A DNA stretch of 64,000 nucleotides from an uncultured bacterium (GCA_963749495.1 CAVVMW010000021.1:1-64000); one strand, 5' to 3'. Positions 13,200-62,526 are shown, counted from the stretch's first letter. Notes: generated from the letters alone by a model not told the origin. Made by a program: numbers and translations.

Positions 13200-13303
13200 C
13201 GACCTTTGTCGCGACCTTCGTCGCATCCTTTGTCGGATCGGGCGCTTTTCGACAAAGGTCTCGAGGAAGTTTTCATCCCGGCAGGGTTCTGGGACGGGCT
13301 GCA
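13200..13303. repeat. 12-mer (ACCTTTGTCG..) / (CGACAAAGG) inverted array, family B
   Basis: Same motif at about 14908, 37955, 47406 and 56458. Confidence 0.8.
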
Positions 13304-14907: not shown

Positions 14908-14980
14908 ACCTTTGTCGCAACCTTTGTCGCGACCTTTGTCGAGGCATGGCCAACCCGACAAAGGTTTCGACAAAGGTCCG
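14908..14980. repeat. Family B 12-mer inverted array
   Basis: (cctttgtcg)x3 ... (cgacaaagg)x2. Confidence 0.8.
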
Positions 14981-37925: not shown

Positions 37926-38066
37926 ACTGCACCGGACTTTGAGTGACTTCGGTATCTTTGTCGCAGCCTTTGTCGGAGCCTTTGTCGAGTTCAGCCGGAT
38001 TTCGACAAAGGTTTCGACAAAGGCTGCGACAAAGGTCGTGAAAGTCATTCAAAGTCCGGTGCAGTA
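37926..38066. repeat. Family B 12-mer array inside TIR TACTGCACCGGACTTTGA...TCAAAGTCCGGTGCAGTA
   Basis: Perfect 18-bp terminal inverted repeats around the array. Confidence 0.85.
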
Positions 38067-41076: not shown

Positions 41077-42363
41077 ATGAGCACTTCACATTGGACCAGC
41101 CGCAGCCGAGTTCAGGCCGCGCTCAACCATCAACAGCCCGACTGTGTCCCGATGGATTTCAGCGGCACGGCGGTGACGGGCATCCATGTCTCGGCGGTGA
41201 CGCGGTTGCGGCGCCGGTTGCTGGGCGAGCCGGACTACCGGGTGCGGGTGATCGAGCCTTACCAGATGCTGGGCGAACTGGATGACCGGCTGCGCGCCGC
41301 GCTGGGCATCGATGTGATTGGGGTAACCCCGCGCAAGTCCATGTTCGGCACCGAGTCCAAGGACTGGAAGCCCTTCACGCTCTTCGACGGCACCGAGTGC
41401 TTGGTGCCGGGCCAATTCAACGTCACCCGCGCCGAGGACGGCGGCTGGCTCATCTACCCGGAGGGCGACACCAGCGCGCCGCCCCGGGGCCACATGCCGC
41501 AGGGCGGTTATTTCTGCGACACGATCGTTTACCAGGAACCGATCGACGAGGCAAAGCTCGACCCGCAGGACAACCTCGAGGAGTTCGGCCTGCTGAGCGA
41601 GGCCGACCTGGCCTACTTCCGCGACAAAAAGCAGTGGGTGCAGGCCCGCCCCGATTACGGCTGCATCCTGACCATCCCCGGCGCAGGTTTCGGCGACATT
41701 GCCCAGGTCCCTGCCCCCTGGCTCAAGCGTCCCAAGGGCATCCGCGACATCTCGGAGTGGTATGTCTCGACCAAGACGCGCCGCGATTATGTGTACGCCG
41801 TCTTCGAGCGCCAGTGCGCCATTGCCCTCGAAAACACCAAGACCCTCATCGACCTGTTCGGCGGCCTCGTCCAAGCGGCCTGGATTACCGGCACCGATTT
41901 CGGCACGCAGCGCGGGCCGTTCATCTCCTGCCAGGCCTACCGCGACCTGTTCAAGCCGTTTCACAAGCAGATGGCCCAGCTCATCCATCGCCGCTCCAAC
42001 TGGAAGGTCTTCATTCATTCCTGCGGCTCGGTCTTCGCGCTCATCCCCGACTTCATCGAGGCCGGCTTCGACATCCTCAACCCGGTCCAATGCTCCGCCG
42101 CCGAGATGGACGCCGCCCGGCTCAAGCGCGAGTTCGGCAAGGACATCGTGTTTTGGGGCGGGGGCGTGGACACGCAGCAGACGATGCCCTTCGGCACGCC
42201 GGAGCAGGTTTATCGCCAGGTGCGCGAGCGAATCGGGCTCTTCAATGCAGGCGGCGGTTTTGTTTTCAACTCCGTCCACAATCTCCAGGGCAACACCCCG
42301 CTGGAGAACCTCGAGGCACTCTTCCGGGCGGTGCGGGAGGAAAAGCTAAAGGCTAAAGGCTAA
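41077..42363 (+). CDS. Uroporphyrinogen decarboxylase-like / MtaA-type methyltransferase family protein
   Basis: DFGTQ, FIHSCG, LNPVQ, FWGGGVDTQ and HNLQ motifs. Confidence 0.88.
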   Translation: MSTSHWTSRSRVQAALNHQQPDCVPMDFSGTAVTGIHVSAVTRLRRRLLGEPDYRVRVIEPYQMLGELDDRLRAALGIDVIGVTPRKSMFGTESKDWKPFTLFDGTECLVPGQFNVTRAEDGGWLIYPEGDTSAPPRGHMPQGGYFCDTIVYQEPIDEAKLDPQDNLEEFGLLSEADLAYFRDKKQWVQARPDYGCILTIPGAGFGDIAQVPAPWLKRPKGIRDISEWYVSTKTRRDYVYAVFERQCAIALENTKTLIDLFGGLVQAAWITGTDFGTQRGPFISCQAYRDLFKPFHKQMAQLIHRRSNWKVFIHSCGSVFALIPDFIEAGFDILNPVQCSAAEMDAARLKREFGKDIVFWGGGVDTQQTMPFGTPEQVYRQVRERIGLFNAGGGFVFNSVHNLQGNTPLENLEALFRAVREEKLKAKG

Positions 42364-42443
42364 AGGCTAAAGTGCGGAAGGGAGGGCGGACCTCAAAGGG
42401 GTATTCTCAATCGTCCCTTTCCGCACTCTAGCCTTTAGCCTTT
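42344..42443. repeat. (AAAGGCT)n - core - (TAGCCTT)n hairpin supplying both convergent stop codons
   Basis: Stops at 42361-63 and 42428-30 both lie in repeat units. Confidence 0.9.
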
Positions 42444-42784
42444 TTGTCAATTGTTGTGAAAATGGCGATCAACTGGTGGGTCTCGTCGAGGAGATCGGCC
42501 ATCCTGGGTGCGGGGACGCAACCGCTATCAACGAGCAGTTCGAGCCAATACTCGGTTTCATCGATTTCCTTGAGGCAGTGGCCGATCTTGGAAATGAATT
42601 CGCTCTTGGATCGGGCGCGCGCTGCCTCGCGATAGTTGGCGCCTACCGAAGTTGCGGAGCGCAGGACCTGTTTACCGAGCACCTGCGCCACCGTATCATT
42701 CTTTGGCAGCTTTGAATACATCCGAATGACTCGGAGCGCGAAGGCCTTCGTTCTCGGTTTCAGTTCCTGTGGTTGGTCATTCAT
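42428..42784 (-). CDS. Four-helix-bundle protein (23S rRNA IVS protein / Avd-like family)
   Basis: RTKAFAL..., QVLRSATSVGANYREA, FISK..., KE..ET.YWLELL motifs. Confidence 0.92.
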   Translation of the reverse strand: MNDQPQELKPRTKAFALRVIRMYSKLPKNDTVAQVLGKQVLRSATSVGANYREAARARSKSEFISKIGHCLKEIDETEYWLELLVDSGCVPAPRMADLLDETHQLIAIFTTIDKKAKG

Positions 42785-42881
42785 AGGCAGGAATGCTAAG
42801 GGTAGGAGGCGAGAAAGCCAACTCCGGAGGCTGACAGCTAAAGGCCCGCGTGCCTGTCAGGTGCCGCACCGCGCTCCGCCA

Positions 42882-42907
42882 CTTTAGCCTTTAGCCTTTA
42901 GCCTTTT
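42882..42907. repeat. (TTAGCCT)x3 run upstream of the four-helix gene, supplying the stop of the next gene
   Basis: ctttagcctttagcctttagcctttt. Confidence 0.8.
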
Positions 42908-45104: not shown

Positions 45105-47599
45105 TTACTGCCCCGGCGCGACGACTTCGAAGGGGATGGCGGGCAGGGTGCCGATGGGGAAACGGCGGCGGTTGGCGGGGGCCTTTTTGCCGGCTGCGGG
45201 CTGGGCATTCTCGGCAAAGGCATTGACGATGAGATTGCCGGCCAGGCCGGGTTTGGCCTTGGCTGCGTCGCAGGCCAGGACCAGTTCCGAGTCCTGATCT
45301 GCGGAGACCACGTCACGGAGGACAATCCCGTCCGGAGGTTGGCTCAGCTCGAACTGGGCCTTGCCAAAGAAGGCCGCGAGAGCGCGGGAAAGCGGGACAC
45401 GCACGCTGCCGCCGGCGGGGAGTCGGACCAGGTCGGGTCTTTGGAATGTGGCCCTGGGCCGTGGGCGGCCAATGACCGCGGCCTGGAGTTCCTGGGCCGG
45501 GACCAGGTGGTGGTAGGCGAAGGCCTGCATCATATCGTCTGCGGGCACGGCCGGGCGGATGACCCTGCGGCCAGCGATGGTGGCCCGCCCTTGGATGGAG
45601 AGGGTGAACGGTTCATCGCTGGGCATTGGCGGGGCGGTGAGCGTGAGGCGGATCTGGTCCTGGCCGGCGGGCACACGGGCGCCACTCAGGGCGAACCCGG
45701 CGGGGGCGTCCTTGAGGGCGAGGGTGATTTCGTTGGTAAACCCGTCTTTGCGCAGCGCATAGACTGTGATCGGGATAGTCGCGCCGGCGCGGAGCGTCAG
45801 GCTGGAGGGGACGACCCGCAGCGCGAAATCGGGCTGGGGATCGCTCAGGCGCAGGCGATACGTGTAGTCCGGGCCGCCTTTGTGCTGGGCGTCGCCCAGA
45901 TGGAGGAAGTAGGTCCCGTCGGCCGGCAGAACGGCCGTTAGATACGAATCGGCGTGGTGCGTGCTGAGGCCCGAACCTTTGTCCTCGAAATCGTCATTGA
46001 AGGCAAGCTGGCGCCCGGTGGCATCGGTCAGCTTGAGCACTGAATCGAGCGGCGAGTCGAGCCGCCGCGCGCAGACTTCGGCCACGACCTGCTCACCGGC
46101 GTGTCCATCGAAGTGGAACAGGTCCCAGTCGCCCGGCGGGTCGATGCGCCCATTGACGATGATGGGGAGGGTGAGCGGTTGGGCGCTCTGCGGGGTGTTG
46201 TTGGGCTCGAGTTCCCGGGTCTCGGGCAAGGTGTCTGCCGCGAACGGAACGAGATTGGAAACCCACTCGCCGTTGCGCACCGAGAGCCAGTGAGTCCCCG
46301 GCTCGTTGAATGAGACGCTGAGCTTGCCGGCAGGCAAGTTCCATCCGGTGACTTCGATGCTGGTCTGGGCGCCGGCCGGGCCACCGAGCGGGAAGATGCC
46401 CGTCACAAAGGGCAACTCGCCGATGGCGATGCGATAGACAAAATCCTCGCGTCCGCGGTAGAGGGCGTCCTTGATGGCGATGGCATACTCGCCGTCCTTG
46501 GGGACTTTGTAGAACAGGACCGGGTCGGGGTGGAAGCGATAGTTATCTTCGTAGGCCAACTCCTTGCCGTGGGAATCGTAGAGCGTCAAGGCGGCCTGGA
46601 ACCACCCGGGCACGGCGTCGGCCAGGTAAGGGATCAACTCCCGCGCGCTGACGGCGATGACCAACTGCTGGCCTGCACGAGCGTGAAAGCGGTAGCGGTC
46701 GACTTGGCCCGGCAGGATTTGGCCGTTGATGACCGCCGGGAGGGTCACGGGCATATCGACCGGCGGTGTGTCGGGGCGTCCGTTGTTGCCTCGGGCCGGC
46801 CTCGGCAAGGGCGGCTGGGCGGGCTCAGGCCGTTTCTGCCGCAACTCGGGGAGCAGGCCCACGCGGAAGAGCAGGGGATTGGAGAGCCCGGTTGCGGTGC
46901 GCAGGCGCAACTCCCGAGTGCCCGGCTCAGCCTCCGCCGCAACGGCAACTTCGAGGCTGACTGTCTCAGCGATCGCGGGATTAGCCGAGCGCCGCTGGAA
47001 GGCAGCCAGTTTCTTGAGGATCTCCTGCACCATTTGCCGGTCCTCGGCGGTCCAGGTGACGTTGGTCGAGCCTGGCTTCTCGGCGGCGTCGGGGCGCTTG
47101 TTGTCCAAAGCGCGCGCGCGCTTGTCCCGCAGTTCTTTGAGTTTCTCTCGCAGGTCGTTGGCCTGTTTGGGGGTCAGCGGCTTCTCCTGCCGGAGGAGGG
47201 TGGCGCGCAGGCTGGCCCGGAGAAATTGGCGTTGGTTGCCCCGTCGAGGAACTGGCCGCCGACGGTCACTTGGAAGGTGGCGCCCTGGCGTCCGCCGGCG
47301 GGATAGACATAGCCGATGTGGGGCGGTGCCGGCTGGCCGTGGGCGGCAAGGCACAGAGCGAGGCAACAGAGAGCGGCGCCAAGGCCGCGCAAGACCACAA
47401 ACGGAGGACCTTTGTCGAAACCTTTGTCGAAACCTTTGTCGAAACCTTTGTCGAAACCTTTGTCGCAGCCTTTGTCGAAACCTTTGTCGGATCGGCCATT
47501 TTTCGACAAAGGCTGCGACAAAGGTGCCGACAAAGGTCCGGACTTGGACCCCCGGCGGCCATCTTTCAACCCTCCGCGCTGAGGCGGATGGGCCCTCAT
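45105..47599 (-). CDS. Secreted PPC-domain (pre-peptidase-like) protein, frameshift near 47222
   Basis: PHIGYVYPAGGRQG in one frame; EPNNT, NGRID...DLF and DSVLKL PPC repeats in the other; ATGA-coupled to DUF1501. Confidence 0.78.
47406..47540. repeat. Family B 12-mer array (seven plus three units) within the PPC gene 5' end
   Basis: (ACCTTTGTCGAA)n ... (CGACAAAGG)n. Confidence 0.9.
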
Positions 47600-48939: not shown

Positions 48940-48999
48940 ATCAGGACACTGCTAATTGCAGTTATTCAGACGCTTGCCCAAGAGCGAATGTTACAGCAG

Positions 49000-49421
49000 G
49001 ATCATGGAAGAAAGAATCATCAGAAACAGAATCATTTTTGGCAGAACAGAGAGATGCATTGGGCCTGGGATTCATGATGGGTTTGCTTTTCCGAGGTCTT
49101 GCTCCTTACCGTGAAAATGTCCGGAATTCAATTCGCGCATGGTTCAGATTCACCCACTGGAGAAACGGGAGCCTGGTGTGCGCCAGGAACCGGCGTTGGT
49201 GTTGCGCCGCACGATCATGGAAGAAAGAATCATCAGAAACAGAATCATTTTTGGCAGAACGGAGAGATGCATCGGGCCTGGGATTCATGATGGGTTTGCT
49301 TTTCCGAGGTCTTGCTCCTTACCGTGAAAGTGTCCGGAATTCAATTCGCGCATGGTTCAGATTCACCCACTGGAGAAACGGGAGCCTGGTGTGCGCCAGG
49401 AACCGGCGTTGGTGTTGCGCC
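49000..49421. repeat. 209-bp tandem duplication (period 213) of the GxxExxY gene 3' end
   Basis: 49000-49208 versus 49213-49421, three substitutions seen. Confidence 0.9.
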
Positions 49422-50122
49422 ATCTGCTCGATGCTCTTGGTAACTGCTGTGAGCCTGAACGCCGTGTCCCCAATTACCAGCCCAATCTTCTGCCTGCCGA
49501 GCAAACGAACCCCGTCCCATAGTTCCACTTCACCGGGCTCTGCATTCGGACCATTGAGCAAATGGTTCATCGCCTCGCGGTAGGGGCTTATCTCGAGGAA
49601 TGCCCCCCAGTCCTCCAATAGCTCGATGAGCTTCCTCCTGAACGTGCCGCTTGCCACGTCGAGCTCACGCCATTCATCGTCCACAATGCAAAACCTCCTC
49701 CTCTGGGCCGCGTCCAGGGTAGTCGATACAAACTCCCATTCGACGCTCGGTGGGCGAAGATTGAGCAGTTTTCCATGCCTCAAACCGGCCATCAGGAGGT
49801 AATTGAGCGCCTGTGCGCGGTGGGCTGGGCTGATGGCCTCCGCTGTCTTCACCTCAACCATCATCCCATGCGCGAAGACAAGGTCCATGTAGTAGTCCTT
49901 TCGAAAGGACTCATGCGTAAGACGAATCCGGACCTCCTTCTCAATTGGTGCAATGCCTGATTCGGTGCATCGCCCTGCGATAGCCCCCTTGTACAACTCC
50001 TCATCCAAGAGCCTGCCAAATTCGTTGTGGACCGCGAAAACGGCCCCCATGACTCGCTTGTCCATTGCATGGAACTCCTCCTGGCCAAAGGCCCGTATTT
50101 CCGTGGCAACTTCGATCGGCAT
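49319..50122 (-). CDS. GxxExxY-family protein (PD-(D/E)XK-like), long form
   Basis: VHNEFGRLLDEELY, MDLV...VEVK, H.AQ.LNYL motifs. Confidence 0.85.
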   Translation of the reverse strand: MPIEVATEIRAFGQEEFHAMDKRVMGAVFAVHNEFGRLLDEELYKGAIAGRCTESGIAPIEKEVRIRLTHESFRKDYYMDLVFAHGMMVEVKTAEAISPAHRAQALNYLLMAGLRHGKLLNLRPPSVEWEFVSTTLDAAQRRRFCIVDDEWRELDVASGTFRRKLIELLEDWGAFLEISPYREAMNHLLNGPNAEPGEVELWDGVRLLGRQKIGLVIGDTAFRLTAVTKSIEQMAQHQRRFLAHTRLPFLQWVNLNHARIEFRTLSR

Positions 50123-54515: not shown

Positions 54516-56297
54516 ATGCGAACACTCGCTTCACTGCTGCTGGTTTGCCTGGCCGCCGGTTGTGCCAGGATGTCTCCCTCGACCGGCCGGGACGCGGCCG
54601 GCGCCGACGCCGCCTTCACACAGTTGGCCGAGGAGTATCTCTCCGGCTACCTCGCCTGGCGTCCGCAGACCGGCACGGCGCTCGGGTTTCACCAGTATGA
54701 TGGGAAGCTCACCGATTACAGCCCCATCTCGCTCCAGACCGAATTGGCCCGGCTCAAATCGTTCGACTCGAGGCTGGCGGGGCTGAACACCAGCCGGCTG
54801 GGCCCGCGCGCCTTTCACGATTACCGCATCCTGCGCGCGGCCATCCAGCGGGAAATCTTCAGCTTCGACCGGATGCGGGTCTTTTGGCAAAACCCGATGA
54901 CCTACGCCGGCGCCCTGGACGTGAGCGTCTATATCAAGCGCGACTTTGCGCCGCTCCAGGAGCGGGTCGGCTCGATCCTGGGCCTTCTGGACCAGGCGCC
55001 GGCGCTCTTCGGGGCGGCGCGGGCCAACTTGGCCGACTCGCTGCCGCGCCCGCAAATCGAGACCGCCATCGAACAGGCGGAGGGCGCCGCGGAGTTCCTG
55101 GCCAAAGACCTGGTCCAGGCACTCAAGGACGTGAAAAACCCCGGGCTCATGGAGCAATTCAACGCGTCCAACCAGCGCGCCATCCAGGCCCTGCGCGACT
55201 ACGCCGCCTGGCTCAAGGAGCAGAAGCTGCCCAAGGCCAACGACCGCTACGCCCTGGGCCGCGAGAAATACATGGAACTGCTCCAATACGGCGAGTTAGT
55301 GAGTGCCTCGCCGGAGCGATTGCTGGAGATCGGCCTGCGCGAGTTGCGCCGCCAGCAGGAGGTCTTTGCCAGCGCCGCCCGGCAGATCGATCCGGCCCGC
55401 AAGCCCACGGAGGTGTTCCAGGCCATCCAACGCGACCATCCCACCGAGCAGAGCCTCATTGCCGACACGGCGCGAGACCTCGAGAGCATCCGCCGGTTCC
55501 TGGTCCAGCGCCGCCTGATCACCCTGCCTTCACAAGTCCGCCCGCAAGTGGCCGAGACCCCGCAGTTCCTGCGCGCCACCAGCTTCGCCTCGATGGACAC
55601 GCCCGGCCCGTTCGAGACCCGGGCCACCGAGGCCTACTATTACGTCACGCCCGTGGAACCCGATTGGACGCCTGCCCAGAAAGACGAATGGCTCACTGCC
55701 TTCAACTACTACACCACCAACGTGGTCTCCATCCACGAGGTCTATCCGGGCCACTATGTCCAGTTCCTCTGCCTGAAGGCCTCGCCGGCCGGCAAGGTCG
55801 AGAAGATCTTCTCCAGCTATGCCTTTGTCGAGGGCTGGGCCCATTACGCCGAGCAAATGATGCTCGATGAAGGCTTCGGCCGGGGCGGCGCCGCAATCGC
55901 CCAACGCGAGGACTTGGTCCGCGCGGCCAAATACCGCATGGCCCAGGCCGACGAAGCCCTCCTGCGCGTCTGCCGGCTCTGCGTCTCCATCCAAATGCAC
56001 TGCCAGGGCATGACCGTGGACCAGGCCGCCCAATTCTTCCAGGACAATTGCTATTACCAGCCAAAACCCTCGCGCGCCGAGGCCGTGCGCGGCACCTTCG
56101 ACCCCGAATACCTCTATTACACGCTGGGCAAGATGGAACTGCTCAAGCTGCGCGACGACTGCCGCAAACAGGAGGGCGCGGGCTTCACGCTCCAAAAATT
56201 CCACGACGAACTCCTGCGCCACGGCGCGCCCCCGGTCCGCTTGCTGAGGGAAATCATGCTCAAAGACAGAGCCGCGTGGGACCAGGCCATCGAATAG
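54516..56297 (+). CDS. DUF885-family lipoprotein
   Basis: Lipobox LAAGC, HEVYPGH, EGWAHYAE and YYTLGK motifs. Confidence 0.9.
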   Translation: MRTLASLLLVCLAAGCARMSPSTGRDAAGADAAFTQLAEEYLSGYLAWRPQTGTALGFHQYDGKLTDYSPISLQTELARLKSFDSRLAGLNTSRLGPRAFHDYRILRAAIQREIFSFDRMRVFWQNPMTYAGALDVSVYIKRDFAPLQERVGSILGLLDQAPALFGAARANLADSLPRPQIETAIEQAEGAAEFLAKDLVQALKDVKNPGLMEQFNASNQRAIQALRDYAAWLKEQKLPKANDRYALGREKYMELLQYGELVSASPERLLEIGLRELRRQQEVFASAARQIDPARKPTEVFQAIQRDHPTEQSLIADTARDLESIRRFLVQRRLITLPSQVRPQVAETPQFLRATSFASMDTPGPFETRATEAYYYVTPVEPDWTPAQKDEWLTAFNYYTTNVVSIHEVYPGHYVQFLCLKASPAGKVEKIFSSYAFVEGWAHYAEQMMLDEGFGRGGAAIAQREDLVRAAKYRMAQADEALLRVCRLCVSIQMHCQGMTVDQAAQFFQDNCYYQPKPSRAEAVRGTFDPEYLYYTLGKMELLKLRDDCRKQEGAGFTLQKFHDELLRHGAPPVRLLREIMLKDRAAWDQAIE

Positions 56298-56400
56298 TGC
56301 GGAGTGCGGAGTGCGGAATGCGGAATCCTTCGGAGGAAGGGAGACGGAGGGTGGAGGGCGGAATGACGAATGACGAATGACGAATGACGAATGACGAATG
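56298..56400. repeat. Composite heptamer element, family E: (GTGCGGA)n - core - (GAATGAC)n
   Basis: Same modules at 62347-62526 and inverted inside the polymerase gene. Confidence 0.9.
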
Positions 56401-56426
56401 AGCCCGCAGTCAGTAGTCAGTAGCTA

Positions 56427-56567
56427 GAGCCTGTCCCCAAAGCCCCGCGAGTGGGGGACCTTTGTCGCAGCCTTTGTCGAAACCTTTGTCGGATTGGCCC
56501 TTTTTCGACAAAGGCGCCGACAAAGGCTGCGACAAAGGTTCGGAACCAGGGCTTTTGGGACAGGCTC
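56427..56567. mobile_element. MITE-like element: TIR GAGCCTGTCCC.AAAGCCC enclosing a family B array
   Basis: About 19-bp terminal inverted repeats. Confidence 0.75.
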
Positions 56568-56619
56568 CAGCCACTGACTCCCTCGGTTTTTTTATTGTTG
56601 ACAAGCGCGGCCTTCATAT

Positions 56620-56633
56620 TGGACACTTGTTCA
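56620..56633. promoter_or_regulatory. Candidate LexA operator (TGGACA-CT-TGTTCA)
   Basis: Imperfect palindrome 2 nt before the lexA ATG; TTGACA at 56598-56603. Confidence 0.45.
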
Positions 56634-56635
56634 GT

Positions 56636-57268
56636 ATGAAGGAACTGACGAAGAGACAACGCCAGGTCCTGGAGTTCATCCAGGACCGCCAGGATGCAGC
56701 GGGCCTCGTTCCGACCTACCGCGAGATAGCCGCGCATTTCGGTTTCAACAGTCCGAACGCAGTGCTGGCGCACGTCAAGGCCCTGCAGAGCAAGGGGTTT
56801 TTGAAAAACCAGCCGGGCCGCGCCCGGACTTTCCAGGTGATGAATCCCAGCGCGCCGAGGCACCGGTTGCGGCCGCGCATCCTCTCGGTGCCCATCTACG
56901 GCACCATCCCTGCCGGTGTCCCGATCGAGGCCGTCCAGGAAGACGAGGGGTGCGTGCTGATCGACGTGGAGACGCTGGGGATTCGGCCGAGCGCCCGCAC
57001 CTTTGGCTTGAAGGTCCGGGGCGATTCCATGCTCGGCAAGAACATCGTGGACGGCGACATCGCCATCATCGAGCATGGCCTGGCGCCGCGTCCCGGCGAC
57101 GTGGTGGCCGCGCTCATCAACGGGCAGGTCACGCTCAAGACTTTTGTCGTGCAGCGGGGCAAGGCATTTTTGCGCGCGGAAAATCCCCGCTATTCGAACC
57201 TGGTCCCCCAGGAAGAACTGCAAGTCCAGGGCGTTATGGTGGCCCTGGTGCGCAGGCGGAAAGGCTAA
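56636..57268 (+). CDS. lexA: LexA repressor
   Basis: LTKRQ..VL.FI wHTH, PTYREIA, Ala-Gly cleavage site IPAG, catalytic GDSM and TLK. Confidence 0.93.
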   Translation: MKELTKRQRQVLEFIQDRQDAAGLVPTYREIAAHFGFNSPNAVLAHVKALQSKGFLKNQPGRARTFQVMNPSAPRHRLRPRILSVPIYGTIPAGVPIEAVQEDEGCVLIDVETLGIRPSARTFGLKVRGDSMLGKNIVDGDIAIIEHGLAPRPGDVVAALINGQVTLKTFVVQRGKAFLRAENPRYSNLVPQEELQVQGVMVALVRRRKG

Positions 57269-57510
57269 AGGCTGAAGGCTAAAGGCTAAAGGTGAGGGAC
57301 GAATGACAAATGACAAATGACAAATGACGAATGACGAATGACGAAGGGGGGCCGAGCAGGGAAGGGCGCGAAGCGTTTTGGACTGGCGCAGTCCAAAACC
57401 TGGCGGCCTGGATACCGAGTGCCGACGGGCGCCGCCTCGTCTCCGCTTCGTCATTCGTCATTTGTCATTCGTCATTCGTCATTCGACCCTCGTCTCTCGA
57501 CCCTCGGCCC
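57260..57510. repeat. Stacked repeats between lexA and the polymerase gene
   Basis: (AAGGCT)x4, (RAATGAC)x6, short family D palindrome, (TTCGTCA)x5, (TCGACCC-like)x4. Confidence 0.88.
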
Positions 57511-57518
57511 TCTTCGCC

Positions 57519-60500
57519 ATGACGGAATCTCGACAGCGGGCCAGAGCGATCGTGCATCTGGATGCGGATGCGTTTTTCGCCTCGGTAGAGCAGGCGGCGG
57601 ACGCGCGGCTGCGCGGCAGGCCCGTGGCTGTGGGGGGCGACAAGCGCGGCATCATTGCCTCGGCCTCCTACGAGGCGCGCAAGTTTGGCATTTACACGCC
57701 CATGCCCACCGCCCTGGCGCGCCGGCTCTGCCCCAGGCTGGTGCTCCTGCCGGGCGACTTCGACAAGTATGAGCTCTTTTCGCGGCTGATGTTTTCGTAT
57801 GCCTACGATTTCACGCCGGACGTGGAGATCGGCTCGATTGACGAGGGATATTTCGATTTGACGGGGTCGCGGCGGCCGGCGCTGAGCATTGCCGAGACGA
57901 TCCGGCAGGCGATCCGGCAGGCGCTCCGGCTGTCGGTCAGCGAGGGCATCGCTGCCAACAAACTGGTCAGCCAGATCGCCTCGAAGCTGAACAAACCCGC
58001 GGCGTTTCAATTCGTGCCGGGCGGGCAGGAGGGGCAATTTTTGGCGCCGCTGGCCAACCAATGGCTGCCGGGAATCGGCCCCCGGACGGCGGCGCAGTTG
58101 AATGCGGCCGGCCTGGCGCGCATCGGCCAGGTCGCCTGCACGCCGCTGGACCTGCTGGGGTTGCTGGTGGGCAACCAGGCGCCGCAGTTGCACCGCTTTG
58201 CCTTGGGCCAGGATGAGCGGCCGGTCATCCCGGCGCGCGCCCCGGCCAAGTCCTACGGCCAACAGGAGACCTTTGCGGCGGACACCACCGACCAAGAGTT
58301 CCTGGAGGCGGCCTTGCAGCGGATGGCGGACCACCTCATGGCCAAAGTGCGCGCGGACGGCAAGAGCATCCGCACCCTCACGGTCAAGGTCCGCTACAAC
58401 GACATGGACGAGGAGCAGGCGAGCGAGAGCCTGGCCGAGCCCACGGACCTGGAAACCGAAATCTATACCCGCGTCATCCTGCTCCTGCGCCGGGCCTGGA
58501 AACGCCGGGTCAGCCTCCGCCTGGTCTCGCTCAAGCTGGACAATGTCTATGACGGCCCTTTCCGGAGCGGGCTGGCCCTGGACACCGCCGCCCGCCGCCA
58601 CGACGCCCAGCAGCGCCTGGCCGGCGCAGTCGATCAGTTACGCGAAAAATATGGCCGCAGCGCCCTCCTCCGGGGACACGACTTCGTCTTAGCCGAGTCA
58701 GTCCACAGTCCAGAGTCCACAGTCCACAGTCCACAGTCCGGAAGCCGGAACGCGGAGGACGGAAGACGGAGGACGGAAGACGGAGGGCGGAAGACGGAAT
58801 GCGGACTCCGGACTCGGGAATTTGAGATCTCGGATCTGAAATCTGATATCCGGACTGTGGACTGTGGACTGTGGACTGTGGACCGTGGACTGACTCTGGA
58901 CTGTGGACTACCCCTGAACGTCCACAGTTATTATTCGTTTCTGGATTCCACGCTTTCGATCCGGGCGGTGGTGGATTGGGCCAAACGGCACGAGCTGCCG
59001 GCCATTGCGCTGACCGACCGCAACAACCTGCACGGGGCGGTGGAGTTTGCCCAGGCAGCCGCCGAGGCGGGGATTAAGGCGATTATCGGGGCTGAACTCG
59101 CCTGGCAGGGGCGGCGCGTCTGCCTCTACGTCCAGGACCAGACGGGCTACCGCAATCTCTGCGGCATCTTGAGCGCCAAGACAGCGCGAGGTGGCGAAGA
59201 GGACTCGCCGGGAACGATTGGAGGCCAATACAAGAGACAAAAAGGACAACAGGGACGCCAGGATGCCGACTCAGCGGCAGCCCGGGAGATGAAGATGGAT
59301 TTTCAGGGCAATGTCCGCGCTCCGTTGCGGGCTCCCGCAATTTTCGATTCGCCGGAGCACACCGCCGGTCTGCTGGCGGTGAGCCCCTGTGCCGAACTGG
59401 CCCGGTTTTTTCCCGGCCGGTTCTACCTGGCGGTCGAGAATCCCGATGCCCTGGGCGGGAGGACCGTTCCCCTGCCTTGCGTGCCCTGGTTGCCGGTCCA
59501 TTACGAGCAGCCTGCCGACCGCTGGAAGTACGACGTGGTGCAAAGCATCCGCACGCTGACCCTGCTCCGGCAGCAGCATCCCCAAAAGCGGCTGGGAGGC
59601 GAATATCATTTCCGGTCCGGCGCGGAGCTGCAGCGGCTCTTCGGCGCCCGGCCGGAATGGCTCCAACACAGCCATGAGATTGCCGACCGCTGCCAGTTCG
59701 CCTTCCGCCTGGGCAAACCGCAGTTCCCCGCCTACGCCCCGGCGGACGGCTCGACACCGGCCGCCTTTCTGCGCCGGTTGGCGCTGGAAGGGCTGCAACG
59801 CCGTTACCCCACCGAGCACGCCCGCCTCAAACCCCAGCTCGAAGAGGAGCTGCTCATCATCACCGAGGTCGGCTACGAGGAATACTTCCTGGTCATGTGG
59901 GACATCCTGCAGGAATGCCTGCGGCGCGCCATCCACTGGATCACGCGCGGCAGCGCCGCCGATTCCCTCGTCTGCTATTGCCTGGGCATCAGCGACGTTT
60001 GCCCCATCCGCTTCGATCTCTACTTCCGCCGTTTCCTCAACAAAGAGCGCATGGCGCTCAGCAAGCTGCCCGACATCGATGTGGATTTCGCGCACGACCG
60101 CAAGGACGACGTGCTCGATCTGATCTTCGAAAAATACGGTCCGGCGCACGCGGCCATTGTGGGCGGCTTCTCCACGTTTCAATCGCGCAGCGCCTTTGCC
60201 GAAGCGGCCAAAGTGCTGGGGGTCTCCGAATTCCAGGTCCGCCGCATCACCGAGCGGCTGCCGCATTTCTCGCGCGCCTCCGAGCTGGCCCAAGCCGCCG
60301 CCGCCACCCTCGAGTGCCGCGATTTGCCGCTGGACCAGGAGCCCTACGCCAGCGCGCTGCGGATGGCGCGATTTCTCGACGGCTTTCCCCGCTACCCCAA
60401 GATGCACCCGTGCGGGCTGGTGCTCTCGCGCCAGGCCATGTCCGAAATCACCCCCTGCTTCGTCTCCGCCAAGGGCTATCCCACCACGCACTTCGACATG

Positions 60501-62423
60501 GACTCGGTCGAGGCCGTGGGGTTGATCAAGATGGACATCCTCGCCCAGGGCGGCCTGGCGGTCATGCGCGATGTGTTGGCCGAAGTTAGTCCAGAGTCCA
60601 GAGTCCAGAGTCCACAGTCCGGATATCAGATTTCAGATCCGAGATCTCAAATTCCAGAGTCCGGAGTCCGCACTCCGCATTCGCCATTCGTCATTCGTCA
60701 TTCGTCATTCCCCCCTCCGCCATCCGTCTCCCTTCCTCCGAAGGACTCCGCATTCCGCACTCCGCACTCCGCATTGGCGGACCCGGAGGTCTGGGAGATG
60801 ATCGCCGGGGGCCACGCCCGCGCGGTGCATCACATCGAGAGCCCGGCCATGGTATCGCTCTGCAAAATGTGCGGCGTGCGGGACATTGACACGCTCATCG
60901 CCATCGTCTCGGTGATTCGCCCCGGCGCGGCCAACGAGAGCAAGAAGATGGAATTTGCGCGGCGCTACCAGGGCCTGACCCCGGTGCGCTATGCGCATCC
61001 GTCGCTGGAGCCGTGCCTGCGCAGCACTTACGGCCTGGTGGTCTATGAAGAGCATATCCTGCAGATCTGCGAGGCCTTCGCCGGCCTGCCGCCGGGCCGG
61101 GCGGACGTCCTGCGCCGGGCGCTGGGCAAAGAGAAGGAGGGCCTGATTGCGCAGATCCAGGGTGAGTTCGCCCAGTGCGCCCGGCGGCGCGGCCGCACCG
61201 AGGCCCAGATTACGGAGGTGTGGGGGCTGGTGGCCGGTTTTCGAGGCTATGCCTTCTGCAAGGCGCACAGCACCGCTTACGGCGTCGAGGCCTATCAATC
61301 GGCCTGGCTCAAGCGGTATTACCCGGCCCAGTTCATGGCCGCGGTCCTCACCAACGGCAAAGGCTTTTATGACCCGCTGGTCTATGTGCTCGAATGCCAT
61401 CGGCTGGGCATTTCGCTGCTGCCGCCCTCGGTCAACGACCCCGGCCCGCAATTCAGGGTGCGCGAGGGCAAGATCCGCGTGCCGCTCCTGCGGGTCAAAG
61501 GGCTGACCGGCCGCACTTCTGAAACCATCCTGGCCGAGCGCGACCGCGACCGGTTTTCGTCGCTGCCCGATTTCCTGCTCCGCGTCCAGCCGCTCCCGCA
61601 AGAGATGGAGGCGCTCATCCGGGTGGGGGCCTTCGATGAGTTCGGCAAATCCCGCACGACGCAGGTACCTGGGAATTCAAATCGCTCTGTGCGCAGTCCA
61701 GAGTCAGTCCACAGTCCACAGTCCACAGTCCAGAGTCCACAGTCCACAGTCCAGAGTCCACAGTCCACAGTCCAGAGTCCACAGTCCGGATATCAGATTT
61801 CAGATCCGAGATCTCAAATTCCAGAGTCCGGAGTCCGCACTCTGCATTCGTCATTCGTCATTCGTCATTCGTCATTCCGCCCTCCACCCCCCGCCAGCCT
61901 CTGGCTGTTCCCACCGGGAAACCTCGACCATTTGCCTTCCGTCCCGCTGTCGGAACCCAATCGGCTGCAACGGCTGCGCTGGGAGGAAGAGTTGCTGGGC
62001 TTCCCCGCGAGCGGCCATCCGCTGGAGTTGTTTCCCGATGTGGCCTGGGACACCTATTGTCCCGTCTGCCGGCTCGGCCAGCACGTGGGCCAGCAGGTGG
62101 TCACTTGCGGCCTGGTCATCGAGCAGCGCCTCTTTCACCAGACCACCGGCGAGCCGATGAAGTTCCTGACCCTGGCCGATTGGACCGGCATGGTGGAGAC
62201 CGAACTCTTCGCCCGCACCTACCGCTCCTACGGCCTGAACACGATCCGCTACCGCGTCCTGGAAATCTCGGCCACAGTCGAGCCGTTTGAAAACGGGCGC
62301 GGCTATACCCTGCGCGTGCTCCGGGCGGGCAAGGCGAGGGGGAGGGAATGCGGAGTGCGGAGTGCGGAGTGCGGAGTGCGGAATCCTTCGGAAGGAGGGA
62401 GACGGGGAACGAATGACGAATGA
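57519..62423 (+). CDS. DinB (Y-family) - DnaE2-like (C-family, PHP/Pol/OB) fusion polymerase with in-frame repeat inserts
   Basis: HLDADAFFASVE, ASYEAR, SIDEGY and NKLVSQIAS; then HSYYSFLDS, RGSAA, PDIDVDF, KMDIL, GYAFCKAH and OB-fold MKFLTLADWTG, all in one ORF. Confidence 0.88.
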   Translation: MTESRQRARAIVHLDADAFFASVEQAADARLRGRPVAVGGDKRGIIASASYEARKFGIYTPMPTALARRLCPRLVLLPGDFDKYELFSRLMFSYAYDFTPDVEIGSIDEGYFDLTGSRRPALSIAETIRQAIRQALRLSVSEGIAANKLVSQIASKLNKPAAFQFVPGGQEGQFLAPLANQWLPGIGPRTAAQLNAAGLARIGQVACTPLDLLGLLVGNQAPQLHRFALGQDERPVIPARAPAKSYGQQETFAADTTDQEFLEAALQRMADHLMAKVRADGKSIRTLTVKVRYNDMDEEQASESLAEPTDLETEIYTRVILLLRRAWKRRVSLRLVSLKLDNVYDGPFRSGLALDTAARRHDAQQRLAGAVDQLREKYGRSALLRGHDFVLAESVHSPESTVHSPQSGSRNAEDGRRRTEDGGRKTECGLRTREFEISDLKSDIRTVDCGLWTVDRGLTLDCGLPLNVHSYYSFLDSTLSIRAVVDWAKRHELPAIALTDRNNLHGAVEFAQAAAEAGIKAIIGAELAWQGRRVCLYVQDQTGYRNLCGILSAKTARGGEEDSPGTIGGQYKRQKGQQGRQDADSAAAREMKMDFQGNVRAPLRAPAIFDSPEHTAGLLAVSPCAELARFFPGRFYLAVENPDALGGRTVPLPCVPWLPVHYEQPADRWKYDVVQSIRTLTLLRQQHPQKRLGGEYHFRSGAELQRLFGARPEWLQHSHEIADRCQFAFRLGKPQFPAYAPADGSTPAAFLRRLALEGLQRRYPTEHARLKPQLEEELLIITEVGYEEYFLVMWDILQECLRRAIHWITRGSAADSLVCYCLGISDVCPIRFDLYFRRFLNKERMALSKLPDIDVDFAHDRKDDVLDLIFEKYGPAHAAIVGGFSTFQSRSAFAEAAKVLGVSEFQVRRITERLPHFSRASELAQAAAATLECRDLPLDQEPYASALRMARFLDGFPRYPKMHPCGLVLSRQAMSEITPCFVSAKGYPTTHFDMDSVEAVGLIKMDILAQGGLAVMRDVLAEVSPESRVQSPQSGYQISDPRSQIPESGVRTPHSPFVIRHSSFPPPPSVSLPPKDSAFRTPHSALADPEVWEMIAGGHARAVHHIESPAMVSLCKMCGVRDIDTLIAIVSVIRPGAANESKKMEFARRYQGLTPVRYAHPSLEPCLRSTYGLVVYEEHILQICEAFAGLPPGRADVLRRALGKEKEGLIAQIQGEFAQCARRRGRTEAQITEVWGLVAGFRGYAFCKAHSTAYGVEAYQSAWLKRYYPAQFMAAVLTNGKGFYDPLVYVLECHRLGISLLPPSVNDPGPQFRVREGKIRVPLLRVKGLTGRTSETILAERDRDRFSSLPDFLLRVQPLPQEMEALIRVGAFDEFGKSRTTQVPGNSNRSVRSPESVHSPQSTVQSPQSTVQSPQSTVQSPQSGYQISDPRSQIPESGVRTLHSSFVIRHSSFRPPPPASLWLFPPGNLDHLPSVPLSEPNRLQRLRWEEELLGFPASGHPLELFPDVAWDTYCPVCRLGQHVGQQVVTCGLVIEQRLFHQTTGEPMKFLTLADWTGMVETELFARTYRSYGLNTIRYRVLEISATVEPFENGRGYTLRVLRAGKARGRECGVRSAECGVRNPSEGGRRGTNDE
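58695..58909. repeat. Family E element forming the DinB-PHP linker
   Basis: (TCCACAG)n ... (GGAAGAC)n ... (CTGTGGA)n. Confidence 0.9.
60588..60775. repeat. Family E element inside the polymerase core
   Basis: Reverse complement of 62347-62526. Confidence 0.92.
61695..61890. repeat. Family E element before the OB fold
   Basis: (TCCACAG/TCCAGAG)n-GATATCAGATTTCAG...-(TTCGTCA)n. Confidence 0.92.
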
Positions 62424-62526
62424 CGAATGACGAATGCGGGGTGCAGACTCCGGACTCTGGAATTTGAGATCCGGGATCTGAAATCTGATATCCGGACTGT
62501 GGACTGTGGACTGTGGACTGTGGACC
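62347..62526. repeat. Family E element spanning the polymerase stop codon
   Basis: The ORF runs into the element and ends at a GAATGA unit. Confidence 0.92.

Follow-up and report, generated by a model that had tools for sequence, protein, structure and literature searches.

The DNA analysed here is a stretch of 64,000 nucleotides from an uncultured bacterium (GCA_963749495.1 CAVVMW010000021.1:1-64000; hereafter, the window), in which five copies of a cassette assembled from 7-base units (heptamers) lie in and beside a gene encoding a DinB (Pol IV-like)-DnaE fusion. We labelled these copies E, A, B, C and D (Table 1; positions are those within the window) and found that they constitute a local subfamily, present in both orientations, of a heptamer family that extends throughout the source genome (G000, 11.37 Mb; C-numbers denote its contigs, and G001, G002 and G003 are genomes of the same genus). 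Taken together, the evidence makes it probable that this subfamily arose by short-range templated copying and that its three internal copies, A, B and C, are translated as tolerated, disordered loops. If this is true, the gene would provide a clear case of heptamer arrays lengthening protein loops by 60-70 residues apiece, and the mosaic of five young copies would be a record of the copying itself; no new kind of element or enzyme is revealed.

Alignment of the five copies revealed that the whole cassette order, including both blocks, is present only in B and D. Copy C ends after the TTCGTCA block, without the second block and the tail, copy E is without the first block, and copy A is an inverted copy whose altered middle and additional arm give a long hairpin; in A, the block yielding a TGA in the inverted orientation has been swapped for stop-free units. 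The copy sizes range from ~106 to 215 bases, and their ends differ. Thus, the positions and the order of units proposed in an earlier note, which was made from the sequence of the window, aligned as claimed, but both blocks are found in B and D only. The same note treated a "core" as a separate module, a distinction that was lost on closer reading, because in copy B, which is stop-free in all three sense frames, a single 7-base register runs unbroken across 18 units and takes in the core as degenerate heptamers. Its placing of the inverted copy D on the stop codon of the gene was correct.

The 38-base core has 2 exact matches in G000, 4 matches at ≤2 mismatches, all inside the fusion gene, 5 at ≤4 mismatches and 8 at ≤6. 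When copy B was compared with G000 by BLAST, its best partners were D, C and A, followed by a full-length relative of 77% identity at C15:477766 and then by E, and 369 loci matched it in part. Since the best core matches are confined to this gene and partial matches occur genome-wide, the five copies are a local subfamily of a wider family; the cluster described in the earlier note is thus local as regards the closest core matches, but the ordered cassette is also met with outside it. Pairwise identity is 96% over 134 bases between B and C, 95% over 117 between C and D, 95% over 96 between E and B, 85% over 185 between B and D, and 86% over 157 between A and C, as compared with 82-93% between congeners in the coding blocks. 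The sharing is mosaic: A and C have an irregular arm end in common, C and E a tail, and B, D and E the second block. This mosaic pattern, seen in copies of either orientation, suggests templated copying over short range.

Consistent with a genome-wide system, G000 contains 1,038 perfect heptamer arrays of at least three units, compared with 0-29 arrays for each of the periods 4-6 and 8-12 and with none after shuffling, and these arrays merge into 732 composites. A rare-word partner within 10 kb was found for 17 of 250 composites (12 of 245 without this locus), as against 0.35% for random. The near pairs comprised 6 direct and 5 inverted ones, and the four strongest were three at this locus and one at mfd. 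This genome-wide excess of near partners, together with the distribution of core matches and the 85-96% likeness of the copies, bears out the earlier suggestion that spread was local. In mfd (G000:C6:1044003-1048343, L063), which holds in-frame composites, two composites lying 1.5 kb apart are mutual closest partners and form a second repair-gene cluster.

Alternatively, the copies could be defined mobile units, resembling miniature inverted-repeat transposable elements (MITEs) or repetitive extragenic palindromes (REPs), that are moved by a REP-associated tyrosine transposase (RAYT) or a four-helix-bundle protein, the clustering being a result of local hopping. The block order of the cassette does recur elsewhere in G000 at 76-77% identity, in relatives (L204, L312 and L234) palindromic cores flanked by heptamer arms occupy two sites within the gene, and a composite lies within 250 bases of 5 of 9 four-helix-bundle (TIGR02436) loci, and on both sides of 3 of 9, compared with 9.8% and 0.8% of 1,192 small open reading frames (ORFs). 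However, the copies are mosaic and end differently; the longest direct repeats flanking them are of 2-5 bases and all different, giving no consistent target duplication, and no consistent terminal inverted repeat was found, with end-to-end matches of 2-10 of 15 when the ends were set by eye. No composite lay within 250 bases of the 18 Y1 transposase genes examined among 24 matches, and the nearest four-helix-bundle gene is ~14 kb off and accompanied by arrays of a different unit. A mobile unit is therefore unlikely. For the GxxExxY family, likewise, no composite was found near the 9 full-length matches examined (18 found). Within the window, a four-helix-bundle gene (42437-42754, minus strand) is flanked by AAAGGCT-type heptamer arrays (42341-42906), and a 213-base tandem duplication with 98% identity overlaps the end of a GxxExxY-family gene (48996-49421 and 49319-50122).

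The main argument that the internal copies are likely translated, and not excised, comes from the reading frame in relatives. In 160 related loci, made up of the best 80 of 524 from genomes and the best 80 of 543 from metagenomes, distinct junctions were in frame in 124 of 125 cases at the A site, 142 of 142 at the B site and 141 of 142 at the C site (407 of 409 in total). All 82 heptamer-bearing junctions at the three sites were in frame, against an expectation of one in three in the absence of constraint, and frameshifts in the core blocks numbered 0 of 148 and 1 of 147. Such conservation would be needless if the segments were taken out of the DNA or the RNA, be it ahead of expression or in its course, a possibility raised in the earlier note. 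In favour of removal, the hairpin of copy A is very stable (-132.7 kcal/mol; z = -11.95 relative to shuffles), but B and C fold no better than shuffles (z = -1.69 and -1.61), the copies are without shared ends, the fillers vary between genomes, and in places the inserts displace conserved flanking residues, the EPW/GPF motif preceding D1088 being missing in this gene. We consider removal extremely unlikely. If the inserts are translated, copy B should yield the peptide QISDPRSQIPESGVR, whereas copy C probably should not.

The earlier note had further pointed out that a change in unit number would switch the frame. The arithmetic holds, 7 not being divisible by three, and a contingency switch could be envisaged in which 7-base slippage or inversion toggles the mutator polymerase, the DnaE half or a putative clamp-binding tail. 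In keeping with such a switch, opposed copies of 95-185 bases exist, copy C directly precedes a motif resembling QxxLF, which is named as a clamp-binding motif in PMC3919608, and at a fourth variable loop, within PHP, 6 of 137 junctions were out of frame, 4 of these being among the 17 flagged for heptamers. When out-of-frame loci were inspected, L171, L258 and L282 were found to break inside tracts and L264 in a short tract at C's site; L244 had an N gap and L229 a duplication. These alleles may represent rare slippage or assembly errors. However, none of the 82 heptamer-bearing junctions at the A, B and C sites is out of frame, the tracts are degenerate, with unrelated repeats standing in their place in relatives, and comparable arrays lie in frame within replicative dnaE and der, the switching off of which would be expected to be lethal. 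We regard a switch as quite improbable. Of the inverted copies in the gene, A has stop-free units and D supplies the stop. A count of 13 of 13 for the stop-free orientation was discarded as circular, because in-frame had been defined as stop-free.

The insertion sites are hypervariable. Measured between fixed anchors in 119 homologs, the A, B and C sites are 28-195, 15-133 and 17-122 amino acids (aa) long (medians, 95, 49 and 32); in this gene they are 76, 67 and 82 aa long. Period-7 peptides occur at these sites in 26, 32 and 15 of the 119 homologs, compared with 5.5, 1.3 and 0.6 after shuffling, and the homologs' loops hold other, unrelated repeat-derived peptides. AlphaFold2 models of residues 240-1120 and 740-1634, each built from 77 sequences, predicted coil with a predicted local distance difference test (pLDDT) score below 50 at residues 394-455, 556-605, 1027-1086, 1391-1467 and 1614-1634, with confident domains between them. 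Homolog alignment and mapping on the predicted structure, both proposed in the earlier note, thus place each insert in a variable loop predicted to be coil, and, together with the frame kept in relatives, uphold its description of the internal copies as tolerated loop insertions. In G001, an array of copy B's unit begins at B's junction, and short heptamer arrays are present at C's site in G001 and G003, suggesting that the new copies landed where arrays stood already. The insert in the PHP loop, with ~44 extra residues, is weakly similar to a few other places in the genome.

For copy C, the frame depends on the quality of the assembly, which is prone to indels: rpoB (C14:205104) and gyrA (C15:154695) are split, and the filtered indel list contains 14 clean frame-changing clusters per 89,589 aligned bases, two sites being counted twice. 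The two single-base insertions at the GTAC site preceding C are absent from the three congeners, and a double insertion like them recurs in an unrelated gene (C10:414411/414415). When +1 shifts were scored by codon bias on both sides of each hexamer, the top enriched hexamers were GGTACT (36 of 328) and AGTACC (33 of 328), against a background of 1.15%; the heptamers AGTACCT and AGGTACT gave 13 of 113 and 14 of 94. These observations suggest that both insertions are likely to be assembly errors, the likely source of which would be a base modification at GTAC misread by long-read sequencing. For these two insertions we dismissed a real compensated frameshift at C, since frames are shifted at the motif genome-wide, and the frame that the earlier note had followed through copy C is probably wrong; C would instead be read from 61673. 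The frame starting there stays open across C and arrives at a Q codon that is offset by one base from the conserved W, making a third extra base at this point probable. In homologs, Q[YF]W precedes the C insert in 114 of 119 and a Q stands two residues before the W that follows it in 114 of 119, and the window reads neither. Other gaps of the window in the coding blocks aligned with G001-G003 were one of 3 bases, one of 6 bases and, in one of the alignments, one of 4 bases bordering B, in addition to an extra base in G003. With the assembly errors discounted, copy C is very probably truly in frame.

If only the two GTAC insertions are corrected, the 61673 frame stops at 62288 and the conserved tail is lost. 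Combined with the proneness of the assembly to indels, this would fit a gene truly broken at C by a real extra base, or copies that are partly artefacts, the in-frame reading being accidental. However, the ratio of nonsynonymous to synonymous polymorphism (pN/pS) of changes private to G000 is 0.03-0.20 in six gap-free blocks and 0.13 downstream of C, indicating that the fusion gene is under purifying selection, and both conserved flanks of C share one frame save for a single extra base. The core blocks of relatives are, as stated above, hardly ever frameshifted, and the copies differ from one another, are placed in either orientation within a 969-kb contig and have matching arrays at homologous junctions in relatives. 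A broken gene is thus very improbable, and the pseudogene that, in the earlier note, a frame break would imply is not supported. Peptides and frames taken from this assembly near GTAC are unreliable, and frameshift findings in G000 need the same check. We also observed that CAGCTG is strongly depleted in G000 (observed/expected, 0.08), as are GTATAC (0.18) and GTCGAC (0.22), which reflects either restriction-site avoidance or systematic miscalling.

Table 1. Coordinates, within the window, of the cassette copies, their host gene and neighbouring features.
Feature	Position	Strand	Remarks
Copy E	56296..56401	minus	Partial, second cassette half; starts at stop codon of upstream DUF885 gene
Copy A	58695..58909	minus	Inverted cassette (~58740-58909) plus forward arm; DinB-PHP linker, residues ~392-465
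Copy B	60588..60775	plus	Fullest cassette; loop past the helix following catalytic D1006, residues ~1024-1086
Copy C	61691..61897 (about)	plus	First block plus arrays; between HhH and OB-like region, directly 5' of QxxLF-like motif
Copy D	62345..62526	minus	Inverted cassette; overlaps last 26 codons, provides TGA stop at 62421-62423
Other heptamer arrays	57260-57345, 57447-57506 (span 57260..57506)		Between lexA and fusion gene; outside local subfamily
DinB (Pol IV-like)-DnaE fusion	57519..62423	plus	1634 aa as assembled, frame open; Pfam profile matches
lexA	56636..57268	plus	TIGR00498 above cut-off; Pfam LexA_DNA_bind and S24
Imperfect palindrome, candidate LexA operator	56620..56633		Just 5' of lexA start; identical box in identical place in G001, G002 and G003
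Fourth variable loop	59178..59366	plus	Within PHP; 63 aa versus 18-19 in closest homologs; not a heptamer cassette
Two single-base insertions	61664, 61668 (61664..61668)	plus	GTAC site; likely assembly errors; absent from G001, G002 and G003
One extra base	61898..61901	plus	Separates CAG codon from conserved TGG; probably, with less certainty, a third assembly error

In the scenario that we favour, heptamer arrays would already have been present at tolerant loop sites, and short-range templated copying among them would have produced the copies, the shared 7-base register priming template switching or gene conversion. The three internal ones would be translated as disordered loops and be near-neutral, and selection would filter the insertions by keeping the frame open, so that A would be retained with stop-free units and D tolerated at the end of the gene. 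Several points weigh against this scenario. In relatives, 18 of 20 loci have no local cluster of this sort, and an exact non-periodic 24-mer was shared between two sites in only 5 of 133 loci (compared with 0 of 2,820 cross-genome pairs); dispersal in those genomes could be genome-wide rather than local. The copying mechanism, moreover, is proposed from patterns. In addition, the best-scoring selection of 160 loci is biased to intact genes, a low pLDDT is normal for any unaligned insert and thus a weak sign of disorder, and the context of 61898-61901 is not significantly error-enriched. Finally, mere tolerance does not explain the bias to repair genes described below.

Coding-like ORFs of at least 200 codons span 8.39 of the 11.37 Mb of G000, yet only 60 of the 732 composites lie in frame, inside 55 ORFs, which is a lower bound owing to assembly frameshifts. 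The fusion gene holds the most, but the idea that arrays are restricted to a mutagenesis operon does not hold in this genome, given the in-frame arrays in these 55 ORFs. Eleven of the 55 hosts match repair or replication genes (E < 1e-40): the fusion, AddB, Mfd, DnaE, two UvrA pieces (possibly one gene), UvrC, MutL, RecG, Ada/Ogt and RdgB. By contrast, none of 55 length-matched insert-free ORFs did so (Fisher p = 0.0006, unchanged without the index gene), with a type I restriction subunit and two transposases left uncounted in this control, which was not matched on core-gene status. Twelve housekeeping spans (rpoB, rpoC, valS, an ileS-like gene, two carB pieces, gyrA, two secA, mutS, polA and uvrB) contained 0 internal composites and one at a 3' edge; since mutS, polA and uvrB have none, the bias is not general to all repair genes. 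A long in-frame insertion was observed in valS (G000:C12:212100-213000) between two matched parts of one 1,144-aa frame.

One could imagine that damage-induced repair synthesis, possibly by the LexA-controlled fusion, copies cassettes by template switching over a few kilobases, but we regard this as improbable. If it were true, damage-induced copying would account for the location of the two strongest local clusters, in dinB-dnaE and mfd, and the in-frame repeats of repair genes across bacteria would reflect targeting, beyond tolerance. That repair loci are targets of short-range copying, and not merely tolerant of it, is likewise improbable.

Small in-frame repeats in repair and synthesis genes are a trait shared with intragenic REPs. 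Di Nocera, De Gregorio and Rocco (2013; PMC3733652) reported GTAG/CGTC REPs in frame in uvrA, recBCD-type, dnaE and dnaE2 genes, sometimes two per gene and most abundantly in the verrucomicrobium Opitutus terrae, and weighed neutral loops against a mutator effect while leaving the reason open. Compared with REPs as described there, the copies studied here are, by inspection, degenerate single-register heptamer arrays and not GTAG/CGTC-tagged stem-loops; each adds ~60-70 residues, and the five make up a local mosaic subfamily. Unlike in RAYT-REP systems, no RAYT gene is bracketed here, and the Y1 matches examined lie away from composites. The repair-gene bias of intragenic repeats is thus extended, with a matched control, from the REPs of PMC3733652 to another repeat class.

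The earlier note had likened the cassette to Rickettsia palindromic elements (RPEs), which are families of ~150 bp (a 150-200-base repeat) inserted in frame in unrelated genes, where they encode a conserved peptide thought to be compatible with the fold (PMC10969869). In-frame insertion into protein genes is seen here too, for copy C with the caveat about its frame, and the analogy is apt for the outcome, in-frame loops, but not for the kind of element. There is no palindromic unit of uniform size, as only A folds strongly and the copies vary in length, nor is there a conserved peptide, A being read antisense and B and C probably in different frames. Heptameric simple sequence repeats (SSRs), described from Xanthomonas (GGGAATC), Nostoc and Calothrix in PMC4692102, which cites Mrazek 2007, are closer: they are over-represented and dispersed, mostly extragenic, often beside stop codons and sometimes in inverted pairs, with 7-11% intragenic. 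The period-7 excess and the mainly extragenic spread both recur in G000. By contrast, many different units are chained here into ordered composites, which are not of the G-quadruplex type, and local copying and repair bias do not figure in the reported account of PMC4692102. The element belongs with the heptamer repeats, and not with RPEs, RAYT-REP systems or MITEs, no consistent terminal inverted repeat or target-site duplication having been found with the ends set by eye.

The earlier note had called the host gene a polymerase; it is indeed a polymerase gene, but two polymerases are fused in it, and copy A lies in the DinB-DnaE linker. The domain order is IMS, IMS_C, PHP, Pol III alpha, finger, HhH and a predicted OB-like strand region, with no C-terminal domain beyond the latter. 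The catalytic residues D15, D108, E109, D852, D854 and D1006 are all found here and hardly vary among the 119 homologs, of which 118, as listed, contain the identical six Pfam families; the homologs range from 1,385 to 1,826 aa in length, and most named members come from Verrucomicrobiota. As judged from these matches, the fusion is a conserved Verrucomicrobiota gene in which the Y-family and C-family catalytic residues are intact in one ORF. Databases already list the DinB-DnaE fusion. In the literature searched, which was mostly open-access and exclusive of supplements, there turned up neither a description of this fusion nor a report of heptamer composites in coding loops of Verrucomicrobiota. 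PMC12926913 describes a DnaE2B-PolY-RecA association, in which an active Y-family polymerase is linked to a DnaE2-like enzyme; the enzyme pairing is the same, but here it is in one polypeptide.

The fusion sits behind lexA, and the palindrome just upstream of the latter is a candidate LexA operator. A promoter scan of 56250-57560 under a strict rule gave no site, and one terminator-like site that was within chance. A second repeat family, of 12-base units with CTTTGTCG, occurs as inverted pairs in the window (56458-56538, 47408-47537, 37956-38036, 13200-13235 and 14908-14941), and one such pair lies just upstream of lexA. An exact 14-mer near the candidate LexA box is found at 17 places in G000 (for example, C1:41418 and C6:780078), several of them at contig ends, a distribution as if it were part of a mobile-element end. 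A looser LexA-type box was observed ~60 bases outside the mutL ORF (C24:188189), on its start side.

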